The notes: generated by a model from the letters alone, not told the origin. 26,795 bases of DNA from an uncultured Ruminococcus sp. (GCA_902783065.1 CACZPV010000079.1:1-26795), one strand, 5' to 3'. Shown: positions 3,350 to 26,456, counted from the first letter of the stretch. Numbers and translations are program-made.

Positions 3350-4366
3350 ATGAGAATACTGGCAATAGAAAGTTCTTGTGATGAAACGGCGGCAGCTGTG
3401 ATAGAAAATGGCAGAAAAATCATCTCATCCGTGGTTGCAACACAGGTGGAAGAACATAAGCTTTATGGCGGTGTTGTACCTGAAATTGCTTCACGTAGGC
3501 ATTGTGAATCCATTAACGGTGTTATTAAGGAAACACTTGGACAGGCACAGATGAAACTGTGTGAATTAGATGCACTGGCGGTAACATATGCACCGGGGCT
3601 TATTGGTGCTTTGCTGGTAGGTGTGAATTTCGCAAAGGGACTTTCGCTGGCAAGCGGACTTCCGCTGATTCCCGTGCATCATCTGAGAGGACATATTGCA
3701 GCAAACTATCTTGCTCATGAGCAGCTGAAGCCGCCTTTTTTGTGTCTTGTTGTATCGGGCGGTCACAGTCATATTGTAGAAGTAAAAGATTATACACAGA
3801 TGAAAGTCATCGGTAAAACAAGGGACGATGCTGCCGGAGAAGCTTTCGATAAAGCTGCAAGAACTATGGGAATGTCTTATCCCGGCGGTATTCATCTTGA
3901 TAAGGCAGCACAGTCAGGAAATCCTGATTCTTTTAAACTGCCGAAACCTAAAGTCAGCGGAAACCCGTATGATTTTAGTTTTTCAGGATTGAAAACTGCC
4001 GTCATTAATCTGATTCATAACGCACAGCAGCGCGGAGAAACGCTTCCTGTCAACGATATTTCAGCTTCATTTCGTAAAACGGTTGTAGAAAGTCTTTTAA
4101 ACAATTTTACTGCAGCAGCAGAAGAATTGGGATATGATAAGCTTGTTTTGGCTGGAGGTGTATCGGCAAATTCTTTGCTACGGCAGAAAACGCAGGAGGA
4201 ATGTAAAAAACATGGATGGCAGTGTTTTTATCCTCCTCTGGAATTGTGCGGCGATAACGGAGCAATGATTGGTGCGCAGGCTTATTATGAGTTTTTGTCA
4301 GGAAACAACGCAGACATGAAACTTAATGCTGCTGCAACAATGGATATTGCCAATTTGACCTTTTAA
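3350..4366 (+). CDS. tsaD: tRNA N6-threonylcarbamoyladenosine transferase TsaD
   Basis: ILAIESSCDETAAA, GGVVPEIASRRH, HHLRGH metal motif, VVSGGHS, TRDDAAGEAFDK, FSFSGLKT, LCGDNGAMI. ATG 3350 follows GGAGG (3339-3343). Confidence 0.97.
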   Translation: MRILAIESSCDETAAAVIENGRKIISSVVATQVEEHKLYGGVVPEIASRRHCESINGVIKETLGQAQMKLCELDALAVTYAPGLIGALLVGVNFAKGLSLASGLPLIPVHHLRGHIAANYLAHEQLKPPFLCLVVSGGHSHIVEVKDYTQMKVIGKTRDDAAGEAFDKAARTMGMSYPGGIHLDKAAQSGNPDSFKLPKPKVSGNPYDFSFSGLKTAVINLIHNAQQRGETLPVNDISASFRKTVVESLLNNFTAAAEELGYDKLVLAGGVSANSLLRQKTQEECKKHGWQCFYPPLELCGDNGAMIGAQAYYEFLSGNNADMKLNAAATMDIANLTF

Positions 4367-4399
4367 GTGATATAATACGGTGGAAATCTTTGATTTGAG

Positions 4400-4460
4400 A
4401 AACTAATTTTGATAATCCCGTACAAAAGCGGATTTTTTTGTACGGGATGATTTAGTTTTC
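4400..4460 (+). terminator. Probable intrinsic terminator after tsaD
   Basis: Perfect 13-bp inverted repeat ATCCCGTACAAAA (4415-4427)/TTTTGTACGGGAT (4436-4448), extended by AAACTAA/TTAGTTT, with a T-rich tail. Confidence 0.7.
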
Positions 4461-4586
4461 TTTTACTGATGTAACAATTTTATTAAAAATGTCTTTTATA
4501 ACAGGAGTATGTATTGTGCTGAGCACTGTACTCCTGAAATTGCTGTTTAATATTAGAAAAATTTGAAATAGTAAAAGGAGTAGAAT

Positions 4587-5186
4587 ATGTTTTTTAAAAA
4601 AAAGGAAGCGTTGTCTTCAAGTGTGGAATATATTGTGGTTGGTCTTGGTAACAGCGGTACCAAATACGAAAATACAAGGCATAATGCCGGATTTATTGCT
4701 GCTGACTGTCTTGCAGATAAGCTTGATGTCAGAATTGACAGAATAAAATATAAATCACTGGTTACGACTTGTACAATATCAGATAAAAAGGTTCTTCTCA
4801 TGAAGCCATCAACCTATATGAATAATTCCGGACTTGCAGTAGTGGAAGCAATGAACTTCTATAAAATTAAACCGGAAAATGTAATTGTCATATATGACGA
4901 TATTTCTCTTGATGTGGGAAAAATCCGTATTCGCAGAAAGGGCAGCGATGGCGGACACAATGGAATTAAAAATATTATATACTTGTCAGGAAGTGATTTG
5001 TTTCCGAGAATTAAAATAGGTGTTGGTCATAAACCGGAAAAATGGGATCTTGCTGATTGGGTACTGTCACGTTTCAGTGAAGACGAACTAAAAACGCTTT
5101 CCGAAACAACTGATAAAGCCTGTGATGCTGTATCTTTAATGATAGGCGGTCAAATTGACAAGGCAATGAATCTCTATAATTCCTGA
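4587..5186 (+). CDS. pth: Peptidyl-tRNA hydrolase
   Basis: IVVGLGN, YENTRHNAGF, KPSTYMNNSG, YDDISLDVGKIRIR, GSDGGHNGIKNI, RIKIGVG. SD AAGGAG upstream; conserved pth-mfd order. Confidence 0.97.
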   Translation: MFFKKKEALSSSVEYIVVGLGNSGTKYENTRHNAGFIAADCLADKLDVRIDRIKYKSLVTTCTISDKKVLLMKPSTYMNNSGLAVVEAMNFYKIKPENVIVIYDDISLDVGKIRIRRKGSDGGHNGIKNIIYLSGSDLFPRIKIGVGHKPEKWDLADWVLSRFSEDELKTLSETTDKACDAVSLMIGGQIDKAMNLYNS

Positions 5187-5356
5187 GAAATAAATAAAAG
5201 TATGGTAACGGGTATTATATATTTTTGGGTTTAGATTTATACCTGAATCCGTGAAACCCGGTGTTGATGATCAAAAAGTATAGTCATAATGCGAAGGTTT
5301 ATTCATTATATTTTAATTCAGAAACAATACAGGATTATCAGCGAGAAAGGAAAAAT

Positions 5357-12068: not shown

Positions 12069-13760
12069 TTGTGGGATGATGAGATGATAAACGAAAAAGC
12101 AGAAATATTATCTTTATTTCAACTGAATGATGAGGAAAAACAAAAACTCCGTAAAAAATTTTTTAATATTGATCCTGCTGTATGCGTATGCAGTGATTTT
12201 ACAGCTTTGCTTCATTCTGATGGAACGGTTGAAGTGAATGGAAAAACAGAATTTAATGAACAAAAGGATGAATGGTATAGTATAACAAAAATATGCGGAG
12301 GCAACGGTCATATAATCGGACTGCGTTCAGACGGAACGGTTGTTGCTTTTGGTGATAACAGCTGTGGTCAGTGTAATGTGAGTGACTGGAATAATATTAA
12401 GGATATTTTTGCAAATCACTATTATAGTGCTGCTGTAACAGATAAGGAGCAGCTTCTTCTGACCGGCAGAATGGATTTCGGAAGTTTTACGGAAGAAGAT
12501 TTGGAAGATAAGATTAACACTGCTTTCAGTGCCTGCGATAATAATAACGAGGTGCGTTTTTCCGAGGTTTTTGCTTTGGTAGAAGGATTGAAAAACTATG
12601 TTGGAGAGCATATCAAGAAACAAGATGATGCAGCGACAAAGGAAGAACTTAAAAAGGAGCTTCGTAAAGAATTGCTGCAGGAACTGAAGAAGAAAGAAAC
12701 TGATCTGGAACAGATTAAAAAGGATCTTAAAAAGGAAATTCTGATTGAACTGCGTACGGAAATCCGCTCGGTTATACCTGCATCTAACAAAGCAGCTTCC
12801 GGCAGAACTGTTAATGCAGAAAAACAATGTATGAAATGCATGAAAATGTATAAGGGCGGAAAATTTTGTCCTTATTGCGGTTTTGACAGTAACAGTCATC
12901 AGGATAGTCCATTGCTTCCGCTCGGACGTATGATAAAAAACGGAAAATATATAATTGGTGCTAAAATATCACAGAATCATGAAGGCGTAAAATATGCAGG
13001 CTACAGCACAGATTTGAAATCAAAAGTGGTGATTCATGAGTTTTTGCCTCTGGAATTATGTACAAGAGCGGTTCAGAGTGAGTATGTTACGGTCAAAAGC
13101 GGTTCGGATAAAAAATTTGCGGAACTGAGAGAAAAATTTCTGAAATACTATTATGCTATTTCTTCTGCTTCTAAAGGACATGCATATGCAAAAATACATG
13201 ATGTATTTTCTGATGGAGGTACATCCTATATTGTTGAAGAATTTGTTGACGGAGCAACTTTAAAGGATTATGTTTTACGCAAGGGCAGAGGATTGGATTG
13301 GAATACTGTCAGCAGACAGTTTCGCCCTATAGCAGCATTGCTGGCAGATGTACATGCAAAGGGTGAAGGTCATTATGCTGTATCACCTGATCATATTATT
13401 GTCTGCTCGAACGGAGAATTCAGGCTGGTAGGTTTTGCAGTGGAGGATGTCAGACACATTGGAGGTCTTATCAGTGCAGATCTTGTAAAGGGATGCAGTG
13501 CTATTGAACAGTATGATGCCAGAGCCAGACTGGATGAAACAACAGATATATATGGTTTTACAGCTTCTGTATGCTATGCCCTTACAGGAATACTGATAGA
13601 AGATGCCAATACCAGAAAAGAACGCAGTGCTATCTCTATTCCCGCAGCAGTTTTTAATACACTGCCTAAAACAGCGGTAGATCTGATTAAAGGCGGATTG
13701 TGGGTATCTCAGGCATCAAGAATAAGAACCTTTAAGTATATCCTGAATTATATAATCTGA
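12069..13760 (+). CDS. RCC1-like repeats + coiled coil + Zn ribbon + Ser/Thr pseudokinase domain protein
   Basis: About 2.5 RCC1/BLIP-II-like repeats (TALLHSDGTV, IIGLRSDGTVVAFGDNSCGQCNVSDW), ELKKELRKELLQEL segment, CMKC-x9-CPYC, and a Hanks-kinase fold with catalytic motifs replaced (SQNHEG, VVIH, HYAVSPDHI, LVGF) but TDIYG kept. Start is TTG 12069 or ATG 12084. Confidence 0.8.
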   Translation: MWDDEMINEKAEILSLFQLNDEEKQKLRKKFFNIDPAVCVCSDFTALLHSDGTVEVNGKTEFNEQKDEWYSITKICGGNGHIIGLRSDGTVVAFGDNSCGQCNVSDWNNIKDIFANHYYSAAVTDKEQLLLTGRMDFGSFTEEDLEDKINTAFSACDNNNEVRFSEVFALVEGLKNYVGEHIKKQDDAATKEELKKELRKELLQELKKKETDLEQIKKDLKKEILIELRTEIRSVIPASNKAASGRTVNAEKQCMKCMKMYKGGKFCPYCGFDSNSHQDSPLLPLGRMIKNGKYIIGAKISQNHEGVKYAGYSTDLKSKVVIHEFLPLELCTRAVQSEYVTVKSGSDKKFAELREKFLKYYYAISSASKGHAYAKIHDVFSDGGTSYIVEEFVDGATLKDYVLRKGRGLDWNTVSRQFRPIAALLADVHAKGEGHYAVSPDHIIVCSNGEFRLVGFAVEDVRHIGGLISADLVKGCSAIEQYDARARLDETTDIYGFTASVCYALTGILIEDANTRKERSAISIPAAVFNTLPKTAVDLIKGGLWVSQASRIRTFKYILNYII

Positions 13761-15731: not shown

Positions 15732-17390
15732 ATGGTAAATTTAGGAATAGACTTCGGCAGTACCTACACGCTGATCTCTCATTACCGGAACGACAGAAAT
15801 ACACCTGAGGCAATCAGCCTTGATAATATCAGTCCATATATTCCTTCTGTCGTTTCCTATAATAAACGAAGAAATGAATACAAGATTGGCAAGGCTGCTA
15901 AGAATCTTACAGGAAATAAAAATATCATTATATACAAGGCTTTTAAGATGCTTTTGAATGAACAGATGAATGAAGAAAACCTACGGGAAAGATATTATGA
16001 CGAAGTAAATACGCCTGAAAAAATAGCTTCTCTGTTTCTTGAAAAGGTACTGAAAAGTGCGCTGTCAAAAATCGGTGAGGACAGGATCGGTAAACTTGTG
16101 GTTGGTGTTCCGGAAGTATGGGGACAAAGCTTCAATACCTTTGACGGACGTGCTGTACTGCATCAGATATGCAGTTCGTTTGATTTTGTTGAAGAAGCAG
16201 TTGTTGTCAGTGAACCTGCCTGTGCAAGTGCTTTTTTTGCGTATAATTATAAACTGATCCGTAAGGAAAATTTTGACGGAAAAGTACTGTTAATCGATTA
16301 CGGCGGAGGTACGCTGGATATTACACTTACAAAGGTATCTTCCAATGGTGATACTATGGAGGTTAAAGTTGAAAAGCGTGATGGTGCCGGAGAAAATACC
16401 GACAGGGAAATAGGCAACGCAGGTATTAAATATATGGAAAAGGTTACTGAGAGGGCAATACTGGACAGTGAAGCTTTTTCTGATCTGGAAACAGTTGAAT
16501 ATGACGGCGATTTTATGAAGGCTGTTGATGAACTTGAAGAAGTACTTATGAGTGATGCGGAAACTGTCGAGGATACTTTCAGAGAACTGGAATATACACC
16601 GGATGCGCTGGCGGATGAAGAATTGATTGAGCTTTTTTATAAAGGCGAAAGTGTAATTGTTACATACCGCCATCTAAACGATATTTATAATGAGTTTATT
16701 TATGGTGTGTTGAAAGAAAAGCTGGAAAATGTAACCGCAGATACCAATACGTATGAGGATAACTTTAAGATAGGAATTGTGGGAGGATTCGGAAATTTCT
16801 ATCTTGTAAAAAAGCAGATAAACGATATGTTTGAAATCAGTTCCAAAGATGAACGTACAGAGGGTATTATAGTTAACAGTGAGGATAGGGAAAGAGCAAT
16901 TTCTCTTGGTGCTTCACTGCTGGCGGATGAATTAATTACAATCAGAAAGACGGCTAATTTTTCGATCGGTATTTATGCTTTTCGTTCGCACAATGTTGTT
17001 GCCAAACACTATGCAATCAAATACAGACAGGATCTGGAGTATGACAAGATATATTACACTCTTGATGCAAAGGGAAACGATGTGCCGTATTTTACACCAT
17101 CAGGCAGGTTGGATAAATTTCTGGTGAATTTCAGCGATAACGAGGAACTTGCTTTTGGTGCAAATCCGAGAGCAGAATTAGCAGAAAAACTGAAAAATGT
17201 TGTGAATAATCAGTATATGATTGCAGCAGTCGGATTTTCGGTGGATGCTACTGATTCGATAACCATTCATGTGTCTGATTATGACTGGGAAACAGGACAA
17301 AGAAGCGAACATCCGGTAAAAAGTATTAAACTTTCTACCATCAAGACGATGTTTGATGTAGTAGCACTCAATTCAAGAGGTGACAGCTGA
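15732..17390 (+). CDS. Hsp70-family (actin-like ATPase) protein, non-canonical; not the housekeeping DnaK
   Basis: LGIDFGSTYT (phosphate 1), AFKMLL (DnaK K70 equivalent), VSEPACA (E171 equivalent), IDYGGGTLD (phosphate 2), VGGFGNF (adenosine), ISLGASLLA (connect 2). Short divergent C-terminus; SD GGAG at 15721. Confidence 0.88.
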   Translation: MVNLGIDFGSTYTLISHYRNDRNTPEAISLDNISPYIPSVVSYNKRRNEYKIGKAAKNLTGNKNIIIYKAFKMLLNEQMNEENLRERYYDEVNTPEKIASLFLEKVLKSALSKIGEDRIGKLVVGVPEVWGQSFNTFDGRAVLHQICSSFDFVEEAVVVSEPACASAFFAYNYKLIRKENFDGKVLLIDYGGGTLDITLTKVSSNGDTMEVKVEKRDGAGENTDREIGNAGIKYMEKVTERAILDSEAFSDLETVEYDGDFMKAVDELEEVLMSDAETVEDTFRELEYTPDALADEELIELFYKGESVIVTYRHLNDIYNEFIYGVLKEKLENVTADTNTYEDNFKIGIVGGFGNFYLVKKQINDMFEISSKDERTEGIIVNSEDRERAISLGASLLADELITIRKTANFSIGIYAFRSHNVVAKHYAIKYRQDLEYDKIYYTLDAKGNDVPYFTPSGRLDKFLVNFSDNEELAFGANPRAELAEKLKNVVNNQYMIAAVGFSVDATDSITIHVSDYDWETGQRSEHPVKSIKLSTIKTMFDVVALNSRGDS

Positions 17391-19423
17391 TGGATTTTCA
17401 AAGAACGAACAGAACACTTCGATCGCTCGAAAAAAAGAATACGCTTACCTTAGAAGATACACTTGGCGTAATCAACGATGTTTTTGCTGATGTACAGGGT
17501 ATTGCCGGATGTTCTCCTGATAAGTTGGAACTGGGAGAACTCAGGGCAGCACTGACAGGTTTGTCTGCTGTGGGACGTGTTTTGCTGCAAATCAATAAAA
17601 CAAAGGCAGATGAAATCGGAACTGCGGCAGACAGAAAAAAGCGGTTGGATAAGATTTATGGAGAGATTGAAAATGTTTCCCGCGAGATTGACGAGGGAAG
17701 CGATGTGATTGAAAAGCTGTCATCAGAACAAAGAGAGTTGGAAAACAGGAAACTGATATTGGAAGAAAGCAACAGGGAAGCTGCATCGCTGGAAGAAAAA
17801 TGCCGCCAGTTGAAAGAAGAAACCGATAAGATCAGTACAGCTGATATGGATGAACTTAACGAAAAAATATCCGGTCAGCAAAAACAGCTGAATGAAGCGA
17901 AAGAAAGATTCAATGACACTTATAATGAATATATACGGAGACAGGATATATTTCAAAGACTTGAAAATGATATCAGTACAAAAAAATCAGAAGCTGATAC
18001 ACTTGCACAGCAGATAAGTAATGCAGAAGAAAAGATTGCCGGATATGAAAAACAGTGCAGAGAATCAGAAGAAAAACTCAGTGAACTTTCTGAAAATGAA
18101 AGCGAAAATAAGGCAAGGGCTGAGCGGCTTGAGCAGGAATATACAGAAGCTTTGTCACAGAAGGAAGAAATTATGTATTCTGTCTTACCTTCCTTGCAGG
18201 AAAAACTGGAAAATATGAACCGTCAGCTTGCAGAAACTAAAAAGCAGTCGGAAGAACTTTCTGATGTGCTGAAGAAAAAAGAAAATGAACTGAATTTGCA
18301 GACAGATGAATTGGAAGAAAAAGCTATGAAAATTCGTAATTTTTCTTCCGAATTTGAAGCGGAAATCGAAAAGAAAAAAACTGAATGTGAAATGTTAGAG
18401 TCGGAAAATAAAAAACTGCAGTCGGATAAAGAAAAGATGGACAGTGATATACAGAAGATAAAGCAACAGCAGGAGAAACTTTGTGCAGAAATTCGTTCAC
18501 TTAAAGCAGAACTGAAAGCAAATGAAGATCTTGCTGAATCACACAGAGATGAAATTGCAAGATACAGGGATATAACAATTCCGGCAGCTGTTATTGCACT
18601 CAAAAAACGTGAAGATGCCTTGGATGAATATGCTGCCAGAAGCGGTGAACTTAAAATGCAGACTGCACAAAAAGAGGATGAACTAAATACACTGAAAAAT
18701 AAGATAGAAAGCCAGAATAGTGAACTGGAAGTTTTTACTAAACAATATGATACTCTTAATTCTGAAATCAATATGAACAGTCAGCGCCTGGAAGAAATAC
18801 AGGAACAGATTGGCAGTCTTGATAATGAGCGTCAGAAAATGATGGCAGAGATCAGCAGCAAAGAGGAACAACTTGGCATGTCTGATATTGATTCTCTCAA
18901 AAATAAGCTTGACGAAGTGTGTAAAGCACTGGATGAAGCAAATGCAGCAAAGATAAATCTGACAGAGGAAATCAATCAAAAAAATGCTGAAATAGCAGAA
19001 ATTACAGAAAAATGTGGTAATATGCAAAATGAAATTCGGGAACTTGCGGCTGATGCTAATAATGAAACCGAAAAACTGACAGAACTTGAGGAAAACCGTA
19101 AACAAATTACAGAGGAAAGGCAGCGTGTAAGAAAGCAGCATGAAGAATTGACAGAGATTCTCCGAAGTCTTAATTCTCCTGAAAGTGAAGCAAATCTGAG
19201 AATTTGCGAAGCTGAAATCGATGTAATGCAGGATGCAGTAGATAAGCTTTTTCCTGATGTACCATTGAGTACACTTACGCTGTTTGAGCGCAGAGATGAA
19301 ACAGAAAAAAAGAATCGGTATTTTAAAGAGGAAATTGTCAGAATAAGGCAGCTTCTTGAAAATTATCAATCACAGTACAAGATACTGATTAATGCACTCG
19401 AAAGGAGCAGCGGAGCACTATGA
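17390..19423 (+). CDS. Long coiled-coil protein (no ATPase head, no TM helix)
   Basis: Heptad-rich E/K/Q/L sequence over roughly aa 80-610; start overlaps the Hsp70 stop (TGATG). Confidence 0.8.
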   Translation: MDFQRTNRTLRSLEKKNTLTLEDTLGVINDVFADVQGIAGCSPDKLELGELRAALTGLSAVGRVLLQINKTKADEIGTAADRKKRLDKIYGEIENVSREIDEGSDVIEKLSSEQRELENRKLILEESNREAASLEEKCRQLKEETDKISTADMDELNEKISGQQKQLNEAKERFNDTYNEYIRRQDIFQRLENDISTKKSEADTLAQQISNAEEKIAGYEKQCRESEEKLSELSENESENKARAERLEQEYTEALSQKEEIMYSVLPSLQEKLENMNRQLAETKKQSEELSDVLKKKENELNLQTDELEEKAMKIRNFSSEFEAEIEKKKTECEMLESENKKLQSDKEKMDSDIQKIKQQQEKLCAEIRSLKAELKANEDLAESHRDEIARYRDITIPAAVIALKKREDALDEYAARSGELKMQTAQKEDELNTLKNKIESQNSELEVFTKQYDTLNSEINMNSQRLEEIQEQIGSLDNERQKMMAEISSKEEQLGMSDIDSLKNKLDEVCKALDEANAAKINLTEEINQKNAEIAEITEKCGNMQNEIRELAADANNETEKLTELEENRKQITEERQRVRKQHEELTEILRSLNSPESEANLRICEAEIDVMQDAVDKLFPDVPLSTLTLFERRDETEKKNRYFKEEIVRIRQLLENYQSQYKILINALERSSGAL

Positions 19424-20180: not shown

Positions 20181-21374
20181 ATGGCGTTTTTATTTGGAAA
20201 AAAGAAAAAAGAAAACGAAGAACAGGCTTCTCAGATGCCTGTTGTAAGGGAAGATCCTAAAAAACAATTGGATATAACAAGACAGAATATGGTAAAAATG
20301 CTTTCAGCATTGGATACGATCAGTATAAATAAAATAAGGGCAAGTGTTTCAGAAGAAATTTTGTCGAATGCTGAATTATCGGAGTTTGACAGGGATCTGA
20401 AAACAGTTAAGGCAGTAATCGGAAAACAGACATCTTCACAGCTGATGCTGGCTGAAAGTGACGCAATTGATCAGGAACTGCTGTTTTTTGCGGAACATAT
20501 CGAAGATGAAATGTGTCAGGGACATTTCCTTGTTTCAGAAACCTATATGAAGGCAATCAAATTTGGAATTTCAAAAGGCCATGAGGCAATAAAGGAATCT
20601 GATATAGAAAATAAAGATGATATTCTGAATCAGCGTCTGGAAATTATTAAACATTATAAACTGATCGCAGAATTGAACAGGAAGATTGCCGCTTATCAGG
20701 ATAGTATGGTAAAGCTTAATGAAAAACTGGCAAAATTACAGTCGGATTACTCAGAAGCTAAAAGTATTGCGAAAGAAGAAAGTATCAGGCGCAAGGATAT
20801 GTATGATAAAATTATTCGTATGAGTCCTGCAGAGGTTGCTACGGCTACACCGGAAATACAGAATTTTGCGGCAATATTTTCAACTGTTAACGAACTGAAA
20901 AGCCAGATAAATGGTGTCAAAACCAGTATTTCCGGAATGAATTCCAACGTTCAGGAAATTAAGAGGGCTATCGGAAATACAGAAAATGCACTGCTTTCAA
21001 TCAATAGTATTACTACTGAAAAAGAACGCGAAGAAATAGAGAGGGTTAACAGACAATATATAGAAAATATGAAAAGTCTTCAGGATCAGGTATTTGAATT
21101 TGAAGATTTGTTTTCTGAACTGGATGCGTCCATTGACGCAATTAATTCAGACCCTCGCATCATCAGGAAAATGCTTAAGGATATGACAAGCTACAGAAAC
21201 ATTGTTCATCAGGATGAGATTGATCAGAAGGCCGAAGAAGAAGGTATGAAGGCTTATGAGGAATATCTCAGAAAACAACAGGAACAGCTTGATGACGATA
21301 TCAGGGGTATGGAGGAAGATCTCGATAACGATGGTATAAATAACGAACCCGAAAAGCATAAGATCAGCAACTGA
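20181..21374 (+). CDS. Helical coiled-coil protein, candidate ESCRT-III/Snf7-PspA superfamily member with an extra N-terminal helical domain
   Basis: N-terminus MAFLFGKKKK; long helical hairpin about aa 148-275 broken at MSPAEVATATPE; further helices and an acidic tail; first gene of the Snf7-like/Vps4-like operon. The CDS is secure, the family call is tentative. Confidence 0.5.
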   Translation: MAFLFGKKKKENEEQASQMPVVREDPKKQLDITRQNMVKMLSALDTISINKIRASVSEEILSNAELSEFDRDLKTVKAVIGKQTSSQLMLAESDAIDQELLFFAEHIEDEMCQGHFLVSETYMKAIKFGISKGHEAIKESDIENKDDILNQRLEIIKHYKLIAELNRKIAAYQDSMVKLNEKLAKLQSDYSEAKSIAKEESIRRKDMYDKIIRMSPAEVATATPEIQNFAAIFSTVNELKSQINGVKTSISGMNSNVQEIKRAIGNTENALLSINSITTEKEREEIERVNRQYIENMKSLQDQVFEFEDLFSELDASIDAINSDPRIIRKMLKDMTSYRNIVHQDEIDQKAEEEGMKAYEEYLRKQQEQLDDDIRGMEEDLDNDGINNEPEKHKISN

Positions 21375-21390: not shown

Positions 21391-22203
21391 ATGGCATTTG
21401 GTATTTTTAAAAGTAAGGCTGAAAGAGAACAGGAAAAGCTTGATAAGGAAATTGCTAAAACAGAAAGATATCTGAGTGATGACAAGAAAATGAGTGATAT
21501 CAATAAAAAACGTAAAGAACTGGATAAGAAAAAGGCAAGACGTGACGATAGTAATTTCAGGGATAAAGTTTTTGAAACTAATGTTAAATTGAATAAGCTG
21601 GAAGAAAAGTTTGTTATGAAAATCGTGACGGAATCGAATGCTGTAAAGTATGAACGTGAAAGAAATCAGAGTACCAAAAAGTCCGAAAAAAGATTGAAAA
21701 ATGCGTATCTTTCACTTGTTATGGTTAAACATGCAAAGAAAAGATTGATTGAAATAGAAAATGAAAGAGATTGGAATCTTGCAATGAGAGATATGAGCGG
21801 AGCAATAAAAACAATGAATGCGATTTCTGTTGGTTCACAGAATGTACAAAAGATGCTGTTCCGTGCAAGAGTACAGAAGATGGGTTGGATGGAAGATAAT
21901 GAATCAAGCGGTTGGTTCAACGAACAGACAGAGGAAAAAGTTTCTAATGAAGAAGTTCAGAAGGTGATGAATAGCGATCCTGTTGATCTGATGGTGGCAG
22001 ATGATATCTATGATACACTTCTGGATGATCCTACTACTTCCATGATCAATGATTATGCTGAAAGAAGTATTGGTGTTGATGCTGATTTTGATGAAATGTC
22101 AGATATGTCGAAAAAGACAGAGCAGACCATGGACACAGAAACGGATATGGCTATTTCTGATGAGGAATTTGATGATTACCTCAGAGATTGGGGAAAAGTA
22201 TAA
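21391..22203 (+). CDS. Snf7/ESCRT-III-like protein (CHMP1/2/3-like) with a C-terminal MIM1-like helix
   Basis: Basic N-half and acidic C-half; MAFGIFKSK N-terminus; AMRDMSGAIKTMN (aa 131-143) matches the CHMP2-type AMKGVTKAMGTMN pattern; C-terminal DEEFDDYLRDW has MIM1 hydrophobic spacing; directly upstream of a MIT-AAA ATPase. SD AAGGAGG. Confidence 0.68.
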   Translation: MAFGIFKSKAEREQEKLDKEIAKTERYLSDDKKMSDINKKRKELDKKKARRDDSNFRDKVFETNVKLNKLEEKFVMKIVTESNAVKYERERNQSTKKSEKRLKNAYLSLVMVKHAKKRLIEIENERDWNLAMRDMSGAIKTMNAISVGSQNVQKMLFRARVQKMGWMEDNESSGWFNEQTEEKVSNEEVQKVMNSDPVDLMVADDIYDTLLDDPTTSMINDYAERSIGVDADFDEMSDMSKKTEQTMDTETDMAISDEEFDDYLRDWGKV

Positions 22204-22215
22204 ATGAATATTTCA

Positions 22216-22242
22216 TTTCGCCCCGCCGTTGACGGGGCGAAA
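22216..22242 (+). promoter_or_regulatory. Intra-operon GC-rich stem-loop without a U-tract (candidate mRNA stability/processing element)
   Basis: Perfect 10-bp stem TTTCGCCCCG/CGGGGCGAAA with a 7-nt loop; no poly-T follows on either strand. Confidence 0.55.
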
Positions 22243-22276: not shown

Positions 22277-23548
22277 ATGGAACGTAATTATGCAGTGGCT
22301 GTACAGAAAAGAGAAAATCTGTACAGAGCTTATATTAATAAAGCACAGCTTGTACTTCAAAGCAGCGGTGGTAAGCATACGGCAGAGGAATGTCAGTATC
22401 TTCAGAGAGCAGCTGAACTGCAAAGCGAAATGGCAGATATGACAATCGGAGAAGAAAGAAATCATCATTTGAGGGAAAAGGAAACAATCAGCGCTAAAAT
22501 CCTTTCGGTTCTTAAAGAAATTGATCCTCAAAAGGCATTGGAATTTGAACAGGGTAAAACTGGTGAAAAGAAAACATCACAGACAACAGGTAAAGGCGGC
22601 GGTGACAGCGATAAGGAAAAGCTGGATGCTATGGCAAAATCATGGTATAAGGAAGCGCCGAATCATTCTTTTGCACAGGTTTCCGGTATGGCGGAACTGA
22701 AAGCAAAATTGGCTGACTGTGTTACCAATTCAAACTGTGAAGCGTTGCTTGATTTCCTGAAAATACCAAGATTAAACACCTACTTTTTCGTAGGGCCTCC
22801 CGGATGCGGTAAAACCTATATTATTGAAGCATTTGCTAATGAACTTGTTAATATGAAGGATAAGGATTATAAATTTCTTTCACTGGTTGGTTCGGATATT
22901 ATCAGCCGTTATGTTGGTGATGCGGAAAAAATTGTTACAAGAATGTTTGAGGAAGCAGAAAACTGTGCTCCCTGTATTGTGTTTATCGATGAAATTGACG
23001 GTGTATGCCGTAACCGTTCACAGAAATCTATGCCGGAATACGCAGCCTCTATTACAACATCCTTCCTGACAGGTTATAACAGAATAAAAAATTCCGGAAA
23101 GTCTATTATCTTTATCGGTGCGACTAATTATCCGCAGCGTGTAGACTCTGCTATGCTGGACAGAGCTGAGGTAATCCGTGTACCGCTTCCTGACGAAGAA
23201 GCAAGATGCAATGCATTTCGTATGCAGTTTGAAGGAATTGTTTCTTTGGCAGAAGGTATTACTTATGATGATATGGCATCTGTAACTGACGGTTATAATT
23301 ATCGTGATATCGAGCGTGTTACTTCCATTATGAAAAAATCTGTTTTTGAACAGGTAATGCAGCAGGCAGGTAATGAACAGGCTGCTATTGATATGCTGAA
23401 AAATGGCAGCTTTAAATTAAAGAAAAGTGATTTTGAAACTGCTATGGCTGATTTTAAACCGTCTTCAAAGAAGGATATATTGGATGCAATCGATAAGTGG
23501 GAGCGTAATCTTAACAACGACAGTTATCTGATTGACGACGAAGAATAA
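22277..23548 (+). CDS. Vps4/CdvC-like AAA+ ATPase with an N-terminal MIT-like three-helix domain
   Basis: PNHSFAQVSGMAELKAKL, Walker A GPPGCGKT (22793-22816), pore loop ISRYVGDAEK, Walker B IVFIDE (DE at 22988-22993), GATNYP..VDSAMLDR..VPLPD, TDGYNYRDI, and C-terminal LKKSDFETAMADFKPSSKKDILDAIDKW helix as in Vps4/katanin/spastin. ORF track starts at TTG 22271; ATG 22277 is likely. Confidence 0.82.
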   Translation: MERNYAVAVQKRENLYRAYINKAQLVLQSSGGKHTAEECQYLQRAAELQSEMADMTIGEERNHHLREKETISAKILSVLKEIDPQKALEFEQGKTGEKKTSQTTGKGGGDSDKEKLDAMAKSWYKEAPNHSFAQVSGMAELKAKLADCVTNSNCEALLDFLKIPRLNTYFFVGPPGCGKTYIIEAFANELVNMKDKDYKFLSLVGSDIISRYVGDAEKIVTRMFEEAENCAPCIVFIDEIDGVCRNRSQKSMPEYAASITTSFLTGYNRIKNSGKSIIFIGATNYPQRVDSAMLDRAEVIRVPLPDEEARCNAFRMQFEGIVSLAEGITYDDMASVTDGYNYRDIERVTSIMKKSVFEQVMQQAGNEQAAIDMLKNGSFKLKKSDFETAMADFKPSSKKDILDAIDKWERNLNNDSYLIDDEE

Positions 23549-23561
23549 GCGGAGGCTATTA

Positions 23562-24566
23562 ATGTCAGCAGAAGTTTTGGAAAAATATAAACAAAAAATT
23601 CCTAAGGACGACAACGAACATTACATCAGCCGTAAACGATACGAAACAATGCTTGTGGGCTGCCTGCCTTTTGAGGATCAGGAACTTTATTTTAAAACGT
23701 TGTCTTCAAAAAGTGCCATGATTCTGACAGGAAAAAAAGGCTGCGGCAAAAGAACTTTGGAAGAAGCGTTTCTGGAAGAATACGGAGAAATGTTTCCGGC
23801 TTTGCTGCGTTTTCCGTTTTGTCAGCTTGCCGAAGAAGGAGAAGAAACACTGGAAGCGGAACTGAAAGATTTTTTCTCGGCTTTGGCGAACAAAGAGGCA
23901 GAAGATGACGAAGCAGCATACATGGTTTCTCTTGGTGAAATCAATGCTGTAGATACTATGCCTAAGGTATGCAGCATGCTTGCACATGGATTGGAAAATA
24001 CCATTAAAAACGGAAAAAACATATGTATTATAACGGCTGTTTATGATGGAGAAGTCAGGAATCTGCCGAAAAGCATCCGGAAATCGGTGCTGGTATGCAG
24101 GGTTGATCCGCCTTCGCTGGAAGAACGTCTGCAGTTTTTTGAATCCTCGCTCAATTCTCTGCTTGGCTTTGTTAATGATGTGACGGGTATTGATTTCATG
24201 GCAGAGTATACAGAAGGTTTTACTTTTGATGACCTTAATGATCTCATACGTAATCTTCATGCTTTCTTAAAAGCAAAGTTTGTTACTGATGTTGCTGAAA
24301 CAAGCGGCGGAGAGATCGGGGAAGTGGAAATGGCGGATATTGGAATTGATAAGGTTAATCTGGAAAAGGACGATTTTATTTATCTTGCCGATAATTATAA
24401 AGTAGAAAAGCCGCAGCCTGCCGGAGCATTTGATATGAGTGCTCTTACGGAGGTTCTTTCTAATCTCACGCTTAATCTGGCTTCAGGTGCAGAAGAAAAG
24501 AAACCGGAGGAGAATTCACCATTTGCCCTTCTGGATGACGATGATGATCCGGACAACATTTTTTGA
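23562..24566 (+). CDS. Degenerate (probably inactive) AAA+ ATPase paralogue
   Basis: Walker A GKKGCGKR (Thr/Ser replaced by Arg), Walker B YMVSLGE (Asp lost), SRH remnant LPKSIRKSVLVCRVDPPSLEERLQFF, lid MAEYTEGFTFDDL; acidic tail. ATG 23562 follows GGAGG (23551-23555). Confidence 0.78.
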   Translation: MSAEVLEKYKQKIPKDDNEHYISRKRYETMLVGCLPFEDQELYFKTLSSKSAMILTGKKGCGKRTLEEAFLEEYGEMFPALLRFPFCQLAEEGEETLEAELKDFFSALANKEAEDDEAAYMVSLGEINAVDTMPKVCSMLAHGLENTIKNGKNICIITAVYDGEVRNLPKSIRKSVLVCRVDPPSLEERLQFFESSLNSLLGFVNDVTGIDFMAEYTEGFTFDDLNDLIRNLHAFLKAKFVTDVAETSGGEIGEVEMADIGIDKVNLEKDDFIYLADNYKVEKPQPAGAFDMSALTEVLSNLTLNLASGAEEKKPEENSPFALLDDDDDPDNIF

Positions 24567-24758: not shown

Positions 24759-26456
24759 ATGGAAGAATTATATAAATGTAAGAAATGCGGTCATGAATTT
24801 GATATTGAGGAAGTTTATTGCCCTATGTGCAAGGAAGAAGCCATAGGGGAGGTAAAGTTTACTTCTCCTCTCAAACAAAAGGAGGAAGGATCCAAAAGAC
24901 TTCATATAATCCTGATTATCTGTGCTGGTATATTATTGACGGCAGTTATCCTGGGCGTGTTTCTGATGAAACCGTATGCGGAGGGAGAAAACACGGATCA
25001 CAGCAGCGAGAACATCAAGGTACAAACGGAAGTTCCAAATTTTATCGGTAATACTGAACAGCGTGCAAATGAAAAAGCCAGTATGGCAGGTTTACGACTT
25101 GATATTGAATATGAAGCAAATGATAAATATGACGAAGGTCAGGTGTTCTATCAGGAAGTTGAAGAAATGACAAAGGTTGACAGGGATTCTCATATTAAGG
25201 TTAAAATTGCAACGAGTAATCCGGTTAATAATGTTGTACATGACGATAAAGTTATTATGCCGTCATTGACAGGACTTACCATGGAGCAGGCAGGAAAAGA
25301 ACTGGATGTCAGAAAATTGAAATATGAGGTCGTATATCTCGGCAGTGATGAAGTTGATGAAGGTTATGTAATATCACAAACTATTGAACCAGGTAGCATG
25401 ATTGATCCTGATACAGATATCTATCTGTCTGTTTGTAAAAAGACAGAAAGAGTTCTTGAAAAAATTACTATGGAAAAGCTTCCTGAAAGAATTACTTATT
25501 TTGTGGATGAAAATCGGATTGATTTTAACGGACTGCAGATCAGAGCTTTCTATACGGATGGTTCACAGGATCTTGTTACTGCTGATTCTTTGGGAGAAGT
25601 ATCTGAAACAGAGATTATAAATAATTATTCTGTGATGGGTTCTCCCGATCTGATTACGGTAGACAATCTGAATCATATTGTTGGAACGCAGACGCTGACG
25701 GTTTATTACAGAAACAAAACGACAACATTTGATGTTAATATTGTTGAGGATACAAAGGAAGAAAATGTGACGCTTGCCTCTATAAAAATTACCAAGCCGG
25801 CATCGGTGACAGAATATTCTCTCATGCTGGAGCCGGATGAACCTGCTGTGGATAAATATTGTAATACCAATCTCAAGGGACTGGAGGTAACCGCTTATTT
25901 TAGTGACGGTACCGAAAGAATACTTTCACCCTATGTAATGCAAGATGCACAGAAAAATCATGGTATCGATTATACATGGCAGACAGATGCTGGCTGTTCG
26001 GTCAGCAACATAAATATATACCGTGAAGGTAAACAAACAGTAGAAATTAACTACTATGGGAAAAAAACATCTTATGAAATTGTTGTTCTTAAAAACAGCA
26101 GCAATATCTGTTTGTCGGATCAATTTCCTGGTGGAGTTGAGGTCAGTCTGGATTATGACGGAATACTTGAAGTCAGTGGAACCGGAATTATTACAGATGG
26201 CTTCTGGAACGGTTATATCAACTCTGTCAAAAAAATTGTGATCAACAAAGGTATTACAGGAATCGAGAATACAGCTTTCAACAGATGCTGCAAAGCCGTA
26301 AGTATCACAATACCGGAGAGTGTGGAAAATATACAGGAATATTCTTTTAAGAATTGGACTTTCTCACAAAAAATATTTGTTCTGGGGAAGGATACGGTAC
26401 CTGAGAAATGGATCAATTTCTACAATACCTCTGCAAACATCATCTGGAACCCATAA
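24759..26456 (+). CDS. Single-pass membrane protein: Zn ribbon - TM - 2x PASTA - 2x bacterial Ig-like - BspA-type LRR remnant
   Basis: CKKC-x10-CPMC; TM aa 48-70; PASTA repeats (VPNFIGNTEQRA..., MPSLTGLTMEQA...DEVDEGYVISQTIEPG); Ig-like repeats (ITMEKLPERITYFVDE.IDFNGLQIRAFYTDGS; IKITKPASVTEY...LKGLEVTAYFSDGT); LRR_5-like VKKIVINKGITGIENTAF...ITIPESVENIQEYSF. Confidence 0.82.
   Translation: MEELYKCKKCGHEFDIEEVYCPMCKEEAIGEVKFTSPLKQKEEGSKRLHIILIICAGILLTAVILGVFLMKPYAEGENTDHSSENIKVQTEVPNFIGNTEQRANEKASMAGLRLDIEYEANDKYDEGQVFYQEVEEMTKVDRDSHIKVKIATSNPVNNVVHDDKVIMPSLTGLTMEQAGKELDVRKLKYEVVYLGSDEVDEGYVISQTIEPGSMIDPDTDIYLSVCKKTERVLEKITMEKLPERITYFVDENRIDFNGLQIRAFYTDGSQDLVTADSLGEVSETEIINNYSVMGSPDLITVDNLNHIVGTQTLTVYYRNKTTTFDVNIVEDTKEENVTLASIKITKPASVTEYSLMLEPDEPAVDKYCNTNLKGLEVTAYFSDGTERILSPYVMQDAQKNHGIDYTWQTDAGCSVSNINIYREGKQTVEINYYGKKTSYEIVVLKNSSNICLSDQFPGGVEVSLDYDGILEVSGTGIITDGFWNGYINSVKKIVINKGITGIENTAFNRCCKAVSITIPESVENIQEYSFKNWTFSQKIFVLGKDTVPEKWINFYNTSANIIWNP

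Follow-up and report, generated by a model that had tools for sequence, protein, structure and literature searches.

The described proteins that most resemble the ATPase considered here are Vps4, of eukaryotes and Asgard archaea, and CdvC, of TACK archaea. Two reviews (PMC7619361 and PMC10936438) hold bacteria to be without a Vps4-type ATPase acting on ESCRT-III, and the first of them states that a Vps4-like ATPase 'appears absent in bacteria'. Passages of Ravi et al. (2024; PMC11237479) describe Vps4-like ATPases that have been transferred to bacteria and paired there with a TPR plus six-transmembrane (6TM) protein replacing Snf7. They also describe bacterial proteins of the PspA/Snf7 clade associated with AAA+ ATPases, including a two-domain AAA+ protein with PspA, and ATP-dependent membrane remodelling by bacterial Snf7/PspA plus AAA+ pairs is proposed in the same passages. 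Here we analyze a 26,795-nucleotide stretch of DNA from an uncultured Ruminococcus sp. (GCA_902783065.1, CACZPV010000079.1:1-26795), referred to as a whole as the window, in which an open reading frame (ORF) at 22277-23548 encodes an AAA ATPase shaped like Vps4. The ORF is real and is a member of a large, unnamed family from gut Clostridia. Its product has the fold and domain order of Vps4 and intact catalytic motifs, and its gene lies in a conserved gene order. It is best described as a Vps4 look-alike of unproven ancestry, which neither sequence comparison nor phylogeny places inside the Vps4 family.

The likeness to Vps4 runs from one end of the protein to the other. The AlphaFold2 (AF2) model of the ATPase was built with an alignment of 36 family members, with relatives down to 27% identity, and reached a predicted local distance difference test score (pLDDT) of 87.1. 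In this model the N-domain and the disordered linker (Table 1) are followed by an AAA large domain, a helical lid and a final helix at aa 399-414. When the full-length model was compared by Foldseek with the Swiss-Prot models, ranks 1-11 were all Vps4/SKD1 proteins, with query residues 9-411 aligned to about 2-430 of the hit. Katanin p60, Sulfolobus acidocaldarius CdvC (query 8-411 versus 3-370 of 374, TM 0.62/0.69) and spastin came after them, and p97, FtsH and proteasome ATPases were not among the top 30 matches. Human VPS4B, in turn, was aligned to the family profile through both its MIT and its AAA regions (profile 11-356 versus residues 2-351, 186 bits). The Vps4/CdvC-like overall architecture that a sequence-only reading of this DNA had proposed is thus borne out, and the motifs quoted in that reading are all found in the protein: PNHSFAQVSG at aa 128-137, DSAMLDRAE at aa 290-298 and the C-terminal DFETAMADFKPS...LDAIDKW. 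A MAFFT comparison of the family with four CdvC sequences from Thermoproteota genomes and three eukaryote-type Vps4 sequences (metagenome proteins with MIT, AAA and Vps4_C) likewise agrees with the proposed lack of a beta-domain, since an insert of about 45 residues occurs only in the eukaryote-type Vps4 and is absent from CdvC and from the ATPase family. The same comparison recovers the predicted likeness of the C-terminal helix, whose KPS..D..(W/F) pattern is common to the ATPase family, CdvC and Vps4; the helix at 399-414 aligns not only with that of CdvC and Vps4 but also with p97 D2, which has the same pattern.

The ATPase belongs to the classical AAA clade by its Walker A and B motifs, its sensor-1 Asn, its alpha/beta plus lid fold and a match to Pfam AAA (PF00004) above the cut-off, which covers aa 170-300 and is the only notable match in the Pfam scan. 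Both Walker motifs are intact, as first read, the Walker A residues and the acidic pair of Walker B being invariant in the 36-member alignment. Pore loop 1 lies in the stretch SDIISRYVGDAEK (aa 206-218), and the residue ahead of its Gly, aromatic or hydrophobic, varies across the family. The proposal of a single Arg finger is also confirmed by the 36-member and MAFFT alignments, in which only the second finger position of the second region of homology (SRH) is Arg and the Asp-Arg pair is nearly invariant; the MAFFT alignment sets LDRAEV in the ATPase against LRRFQK in CdvC and RRRFEK in Vps4. As a lead only, we take the short LDR[AV]E motif to resemble those of the single-finger Lon and TRIP13 proteins as much as that of Vps4. 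A Lon-like, TRIP13-like or SpoVK-like reading prompted by this motif was rejected, all searches putting Cdc48, Vps4, AFG2 and spastin far higher. A further peculiarity is Arg343, which is invariant in the family. Its motif Y-R-D-I takes the place of the G-[AS]-D-I found in classical AAA proteins, and Arg343 stands one residue ahead of the presumed sensor-2 site. With this Arg and only one Arg finger, the nucleotide pocket has a composition that is unusual for a classical AAA protein.

The N-domain of the model is a confidently predicted bundle that is MIT-like in fold, in position and in size, and in the Foldseek alignments it lies opposite the MIT region of the models for Vps4, CdvC and katanin. 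By hhalign, the N-domain profile matched a set of 20 archaeal and four eukaryote-type MIT sequences with P 3.3e-4 and a probability of 38%, over 73 collinear columns (10-85 versus 5-78), and the MIT domain of Sulfolobus solfataricus Vps4 was the second-ranked PDB match of the same profile (E 0.28). The gene directly upstream, geneB, encodes a candidate substrate or partner that is possibly ESCRT-III-like. It evolves fast, and a word-based search retrieves close relatives only, yet all its positional orthologues begin with a basic N-terminus, continue in long helices and close with an acidic low-complexity tail and an amphipathic helix. In the window this last helix reads DEEFDDYLRDW, and in the other loci it follows the pattern acidic-x-x-hydrophobic-x-x-x-hydrophobic-basic, which recalls MIM1 motifs. 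The tests that point to ESCRT-III are individually weak. An hhalign comparison of geneB with 19 CdvB-type proteins encoded beside cdvC gave P 0.0012 and a probability of 19% over 58 columns in the alpha2-alpha3 region. The AF2 model of geneB (pLDDT 67) had no significant Foldseek match, yet CHMP7, Vps24 and Did4 filled 7 of the 13 top Swiss-Prot rows, and a feature search of the ESM Atlas returned a cluster with 16% Snf7 annotation at 0.89. Foldseek searches of the geneB model against the PDB and more widely returned generic helical matches only.

We give about an even chance to the proposition that the ATPase works in the manner of Vps4 and CdvC, as a substrate-threading, ring-forming classical AAA ATPase. 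Its N-terminal three-helix bundle would recruit it to the C-terminal tails of the upstream helical proteins, with the 270-aa geneB protein, through its acidic tail and terminal amphipathic helix, as the chief target. The pore loops would then pull subunits out of their assembly, ATP being hydrolysed with the help of a single trans-acting Arg (R296), and the degenerate AAA paralogue encoded immediately downstream would act as a fixed partner that either joins the oligomer or regulates it. The steps that we infer are the formation of a hexamer, the docking of its N-domains on the tail, ESCRT-III-like polymerization of the neighbours and a link to the membrane. A bolder reading, to which we give less than an even chance, is that the ATPase is the motor of a genuine bacterial machine of the ESCRT-III/Vps4 type. 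In such a machine the N-domain would be a true MIT domain that has drifted in sequence and docks on a MIM-like helix of the neighbours, and the ring would disassemble membrane-bound polymers. The module would spread as a cassette from one gut Clostridium to another, coupled to an Hsp70-like ATPase, a dead AAA protein and envelope sensors, and might serve, for instance, in membrane repair or in the response to infection.

Several results, set out in this and the following paragraphs, weigh against a mode of action like that of Vps4. The MIT signal does not extend to the eukaryotic domain: hhalign against six eukaryote-type MIT sequences alone found nothing (probability 1.6%), and Pfam MIT was matched by 0 of the 36 N-domains of the family, a single one of which matched KATNA1_MIT (E 0.04). 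What stands of the MIT-like N-domain of the sequence-only reading is therefore its fold, its position and the weak hhalign signal obtained with archaeal sequences, and homology to MIT is plausible but unproven. At the other end of the ATPase, Pfam Vps4_C was not matched in the Pfam scan, and the double Arg of the SRH, a constant of Vps4 and CdvC, is replaced by Asp-Arg. As regards the putative polymer, Pfam Snf7 and PspA were matched by none of the geneB members scanned, and the Pfam, NCBIfam and PADLOC scans of the neighbouring genes returned no Snf7, PspA or MIT, only coiled-coil noise and generic kinase matches. A complex prediction for the N-domain (submitted as residues 1-95) with the last 45 residues of geneB scored 0.14 against a mark of 0.34, which is evidence neither way.

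In sequence and in structure the AAA module ties with p97 D2, AFG2 and spastin. The AAA-only profile scored 181 bits with AFG2 homolog B, 162 with Metallosphaera sedula Vps4, 158 with Cdc48 D2 and 145 with Cdc48 D1, and the NCBIfam models for CdvC (113.2 bits, cut-off 650) and CDC48 (TIGR01243; 133.6 bits, cut-off 802) both matched below their cut-offs, CDC48 with the higher score. Maximum-likelihood (ML) trees of AAA modules were built under LG+C20, one with 101 rows and a careful one with 56, from the ATPase family, CdvC, eukaryote-type Vps4, the D1 and D2 modules of archaeal and bacterial Cdc48, PAN, FtsH and bacterial TPR-AAA, kinase-AAA and tandem-AAA proteins. In these trees the members of the ATPase family form a monophyletic group whose stem is very long (about 1.2 changes per site). 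CdvC is joined to Vps4 (Shimodaira-Hasegawa-like approximate likelihood ratio test, SH-aLRT, 92 with 101 rows and 92/83 with 56 rows), and the ATPase family falls outside the clade that holds CdvC, Vps4, Cdc48, PAN and FtsH, with support of 98/96. Its neighbours are a marine metagenome protein (L034) and the bacterial kinase-AAA and tandem-AAA groups. When the family was forced together with CdvC and Vps4, on the other hand, the approximately unbiased (AU) test did not reject the union (delta lnL 9.0 and 7.7, p 0.34 and 0.32). The 'meiotic-clade signatures' of the sequence-only reading, taken as a statement of membership, are not supported. The AAA module scores alike against Cdc48 D2, AFG2, archaeal Vps4 and spastin, it lies outside CdvC plus Vps4 in the tree, though the AU test allows them to be joined, and the short LDR[AV]E of the SRH differs from the RRRFE of Vps4. 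Membership of the Vps4 family or of the meiotic clade is hence not established, because sequence and structure scores tie, the tree places the ATPase outside and the AU test is undecided. The family may be a deep or a convergent bacterial lineage.

One alternative is that the ATPase belongs to the Vps4/CdvC family by descent: its gene would have come from archaea and then diverged strongly, with one Arg finger lost and the MIT sequence drifted. Such a descent would agree with the unrejected union of the AU test and with the archaeal Vps4 structures, which have the highest identity (29%) and the lowest root-mean-square deviation (2.2-2.4 A) among the tied matches to the AAA module. M. sedula Vps4 is the best PDB match with a single AAA cassette (161.7 bits, positions 8-292 of the 298 in the profile), the N-domain matches an MIT profile best if that profile contains archaeal sequences, and archaea-to-bacteria transfers of Vps4-like ATPases are described in passages of Ravi et al. 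(2024; PMC11237479). We nonetheless consider it improbable, in view of the well-supported separation from the group that holds CdvC and Vps4, a CdvC score that is far below its cut-off and lower than that for CDC48, the loss of a double Arg that is otherwise constant in the family and the failure of Pfam Vps4_C and MIT to match. Descent from archaeal Vps4 is in this sense a possibility that the trees neither support nor exclude.

Two groups of proteins near the family in the tree deserve mention in their own right. At 3490-5352 the AT-rich marine metagenome contig L034 carries the nearest outgroup, an AAA ATPase of 415 aa whose N-terminus is helical and TPR/MIT-like and whose SRH is a classical R-S-G-R, directly preceded by a gene for a 198-aa helical protein that starts with MSLKDRLFG; L034 looks like another pairing of a helical protein with a putative MIT-like AAA protein. 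A large clade of proteins of about 590 aa (L035, L046, L051, L062, L071 and L084) has a classical AAA module in its C-terminal half, and in the three members scanned (L035, L046 and L051) the N-terminal part is matched by Ser/Thr kinase models (PknB-type and MADS6), a fusion that echoes the kinase-like genes of the ATPase operon.

The genomic setting of the ATPase is that of a bacterial contig whose first 11.6 kb carry housekeeping genes (polA, a low-molecular-weight phosphatase, a GNAT acetyltransferase, tsaD, pth, mfd, a TPR protein and an epimerase) and are followed by ten co-oriented genes without informative names, the eighth of which encodes the ATPase. Much of this order is kept in metagenome contigs and contigs of metagenome-assembled genomes (MAGs) whose ATPases are 27-55% identical to that of the window. 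A protein of about 590 aa, an Hsp70-like ATPase, a long coiled-coil protein and a zinc-ribbon protein of about 160 aa are followed by geneA (360-400 aa), geneB (190-270 aa, duplicated in some loci), the ATPase and the AAA paralogue (330-390 aa). In the loci compared, the immediate neighbours of the ATPase gene are always geneB and the dead AAA paralogue. The flanks vary from locus to locus, with kinase-like, PASTA/LRR, VWA and HerA-like DUF87 genes. Homologues of the ATPase are numerous in gut and rumen-type metagenomes, and the few named ones, which belong to MAGs of Blautia, Eubacterium, Lachnospiraceae and Oscillospiraceae, carry no annotation beyond 'ATP-binding protein'. The family was not found in 400 other sampled species-representative genomes of the phylum of the window, and the operon was found in 0 of about 398 other sampled genomes of its own class, including eight of its own family, the host genome itself being only 77% complete; the host of a 38%-identical relative is apparently of the same class as the window, as an apparently identical genome sample suggests. 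The cassette is therefore rare and patchy, a distribution that fits an accessory, horizontally spread system. The presence of Hsp70-like, pseudokinase-like and sensor genes in the operon also suits an accessory or conflict cassette better than core membrane biology.

According to the main rival explanation, the ATPase is a generic classical-AAA unfoldase of a horizontally spread accessory cassette of the conflict or defence type, its likeness to MIT is convergent and belongs to an ordinary adaptor, and the helical neighbours are coiled-coil scaffolds unrelated to ESCRT-III. A rare and patchy operon, a fixed core within variable flanking genes, the position of the family near bacterial kinase-AAA and tandem-AAA groups and the lack of Pfam MIT and Snf7 matches are all in keeping with it, as are PADLOC matches of the ATPase to IetA (77.6 bits) and TRIP13 (70.8 bits) and of two neighbours to the PD-T4-6 kinase. 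The PADLOC scores of the ATPase, however, amount to ordinary similarity between AAA proteins, the gene set as a whole matches no known defence system in PADLOC, and the GC content of the cassette is uniform with that of its flanks, with no island signature. The end-to-end structural matches are specifically to MIT-AAA proteins, and the weak signals of geneB all point toward ESCRT-III and to no other helical family. On balance we regard this explanation as somewhat unlikely.

In yet another possibility, the ATPase and the operon's Hsp70-like ATPase would work as a pair of chaperones, much as ClpB does with DnaK, and would assemble or dismantle the 677-aa coiled-coil protein or on other products of the operon instead of the two small helical proteins. 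The Hsp70-like (552 aa) and coiled-coil genes span 15732-19423 in the window and overlap at 17390, and the pair precedes the ATPase gene here and is also adjacent in the seven related loci with enough upstream sequence (L003/L004, L029, L159/L160 and L163). We deem this very improbable, given that the genes directly flanking the ATPase are invariably geneB and the dead AAA paralogue, that a 580-aa gene separates the Hsp70/coiled-coil block from geneA in L163 and that no tested item ties the N-domain to Hsp70. In the window protein the Hsp70 match is confined to the nucleotide-binding half, and in L005/L006 genes of the same size occupy the two positions with no Hsp70 match on record.

If the ATPase does work in the manner of Vps4, the genes that flank it would supply its partners (Table 1). 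No informative family match was obtained for geneA in profile scans. The downstream paralogue, in an alignment of eight orthologues, partly keeps Walker A and has lost the acidic pair of Walker B and the sensor-1 Asn, and it is, as far as its sequence tells, a conserved pseudo-ATPase partner; its ATG at 23562 is preceded, 8 nt upstream, by GGAGG. The paralogue ends in an acidic tail with the hydrophobic terminus LLDDDDDPDNIF, and some of its orthologues end alike (LLDMDLEDF, MDSMDPHGL). Such a tail could offer the N-domain, or a different partner, a further peptide on which to dock. The gap that separates geneB from the ATPase gene contains a hairpin with a perfect 7-bp stem and a 7-nt loop, followed by an A-rich run and no T-run, which may set the ratio of geneB to ATPase expression or may be an RNA processing site. 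The two ends of the block have a sensor-like composition. Its first gene (12069-13760) encodes an RCC1 repeat together with a zinc ribbon and a kinase-like domain, and its last (24759-26456) a zinc ribbon, a transmembrane segment, PASTA, Big_3 and BspA-type LRR. PD-T4-6 is matched by the first gene at E 2e-10 and by the last at E 2e-13, and for the first gene there is in addition a match to the NCBIfam MADS6 kinase (E 1.6e-9).

Table 1. Location of the ATPase, its motifs and the neighbouring features, in positions of the window.
Feature	Position	Strand	Basis
geneA, 397-aa helical protein, two genes upstream of the ATPase	20181..21374	+	synteny, orthologue alignment
geneB, 270-aa helical protein with basic N-terminus, long helices and acidic tail	21391..22203	+	position conserved in 10 other loci
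geneB terminal amphipathic helix DEEFDDYLRDW, MIM1-like pattern	22159..22191	+	AF2 helix 257-267, low pLDDT
GC-rich hairpin CGCCCCG / CGGGGCG	22219..22239	+	read directly in the sequence; geneB-ATPase gap of 73 nt
423-aa Vps4-shaped AAA ATPase gene	22277..23548	+	ATG-initiated ORF, translation; Pfam AAA E 3.6e-31; AF2 pLDDT 87
N-domain, aa 1-92: three-helix bundle (3-29, 36-55, 59-82) and short helix 84-92	22277..22552	+	AF2 pLDDT about 90
Disordered G/K/S/T-rich linker, about aa 93-109	22553..22603	+	pLDDT <50 for aa 95-109; length varies in the family
Walker A GPPGCGKT, aa 173-180	22793..22816	+	G173, G176, G178 and K179 invariant in 36 sequences
Pore loop 1, Y212-V213-G214	22910..22918	+	G214 nearly invariant; CdvC/Vps4 have KW[LM]G here in the alignment
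Walker B, D238 E239	22988..22993	+	invariant in the 36-member alignment
Sensor-1 N284	23126..23128	+	invariant in the 36-member alignment
SRH Arg-finger positions D295 (first, not Arg) and R296 (second)	23159..23164	+	nearly invariant; aligned to RR of CdvC/Vps4
C-terminal helix, aa 399-414, with conserved Trp of the L..WE pattern	23471..23518	+	AF2 pLDDT about 91
Degenerate AAA paralogue without N-domain, acidic tail	23562..24566	+	matches the ATPase at E 9.9e-6; 8-orthologue alignment

More generally, the ATPase is a real and interesting variant that is not established as a bacterial ESCRT machine, and its significance depends on its partners. If these are ESCRT-III-like, either bacteria too recycle such polymers at the expense of ATP, or evolution has twice put together a three-helix adaptor and a single AAA ring to act on helical polymers that carry docking helices at their ends. 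With an otherwise classical AAA fold and a single Arg finger, the family is also useful for understanding the evolution of the SRH.

Among the known systems, the ATPase shares with Vps4 and CdvC the order of a three-helix N-domain, a flexible linker, one AAA cassette and a C-terminal helix, and with CdvC in particular the absence of the beta-domain. It is also like them in the aromatic or hydrophobic residue plus Gly of pore loop 1 and in the placement of its gene directly after those of small helical proteins with acidic tails and a terminal amphipathic helix. It departs from them in an SRH that is one residue shorter in the MAFFT alignment and carries Asp-Arg, in lacking the conserved PW after sensor 1, and in an operon that, unlike Cdv/ESCRT loci, adds a dead AAA paralogue as well as genes of the Hsp70-like, coiled-coil and kinase-like kinds. 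Katanin p60 and spastin, the MIT-AAA severing enzymes of the meiotic clade, are confined to eukaryotes, act on tubulin tails and have a double-Arg SRH, and no sequence-level link between them and the ATPase family was found. Cdc48/p97 D2 and AFG2/SPATA5-type proteins give equal or higher AAA profile scores and share the pattern of the C-terminal helix, whereas the ATPase has one cassette, a helical N-domain instead of a double-psi barrel and an SRH without R-P-G-R. The systems treated by Ravi et al. are comparable in that they, too, are AAA ATPases of bacteria for which a likeness to Vps4 has been claimed. The passages searched in that paper contain no operon that brings together Hsp70-like, coiled-coil and dead-AAA genes. 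In our ML trees, the TPR-AAA proteins sampled from metagenomes form a clade separate from the ATPase family.

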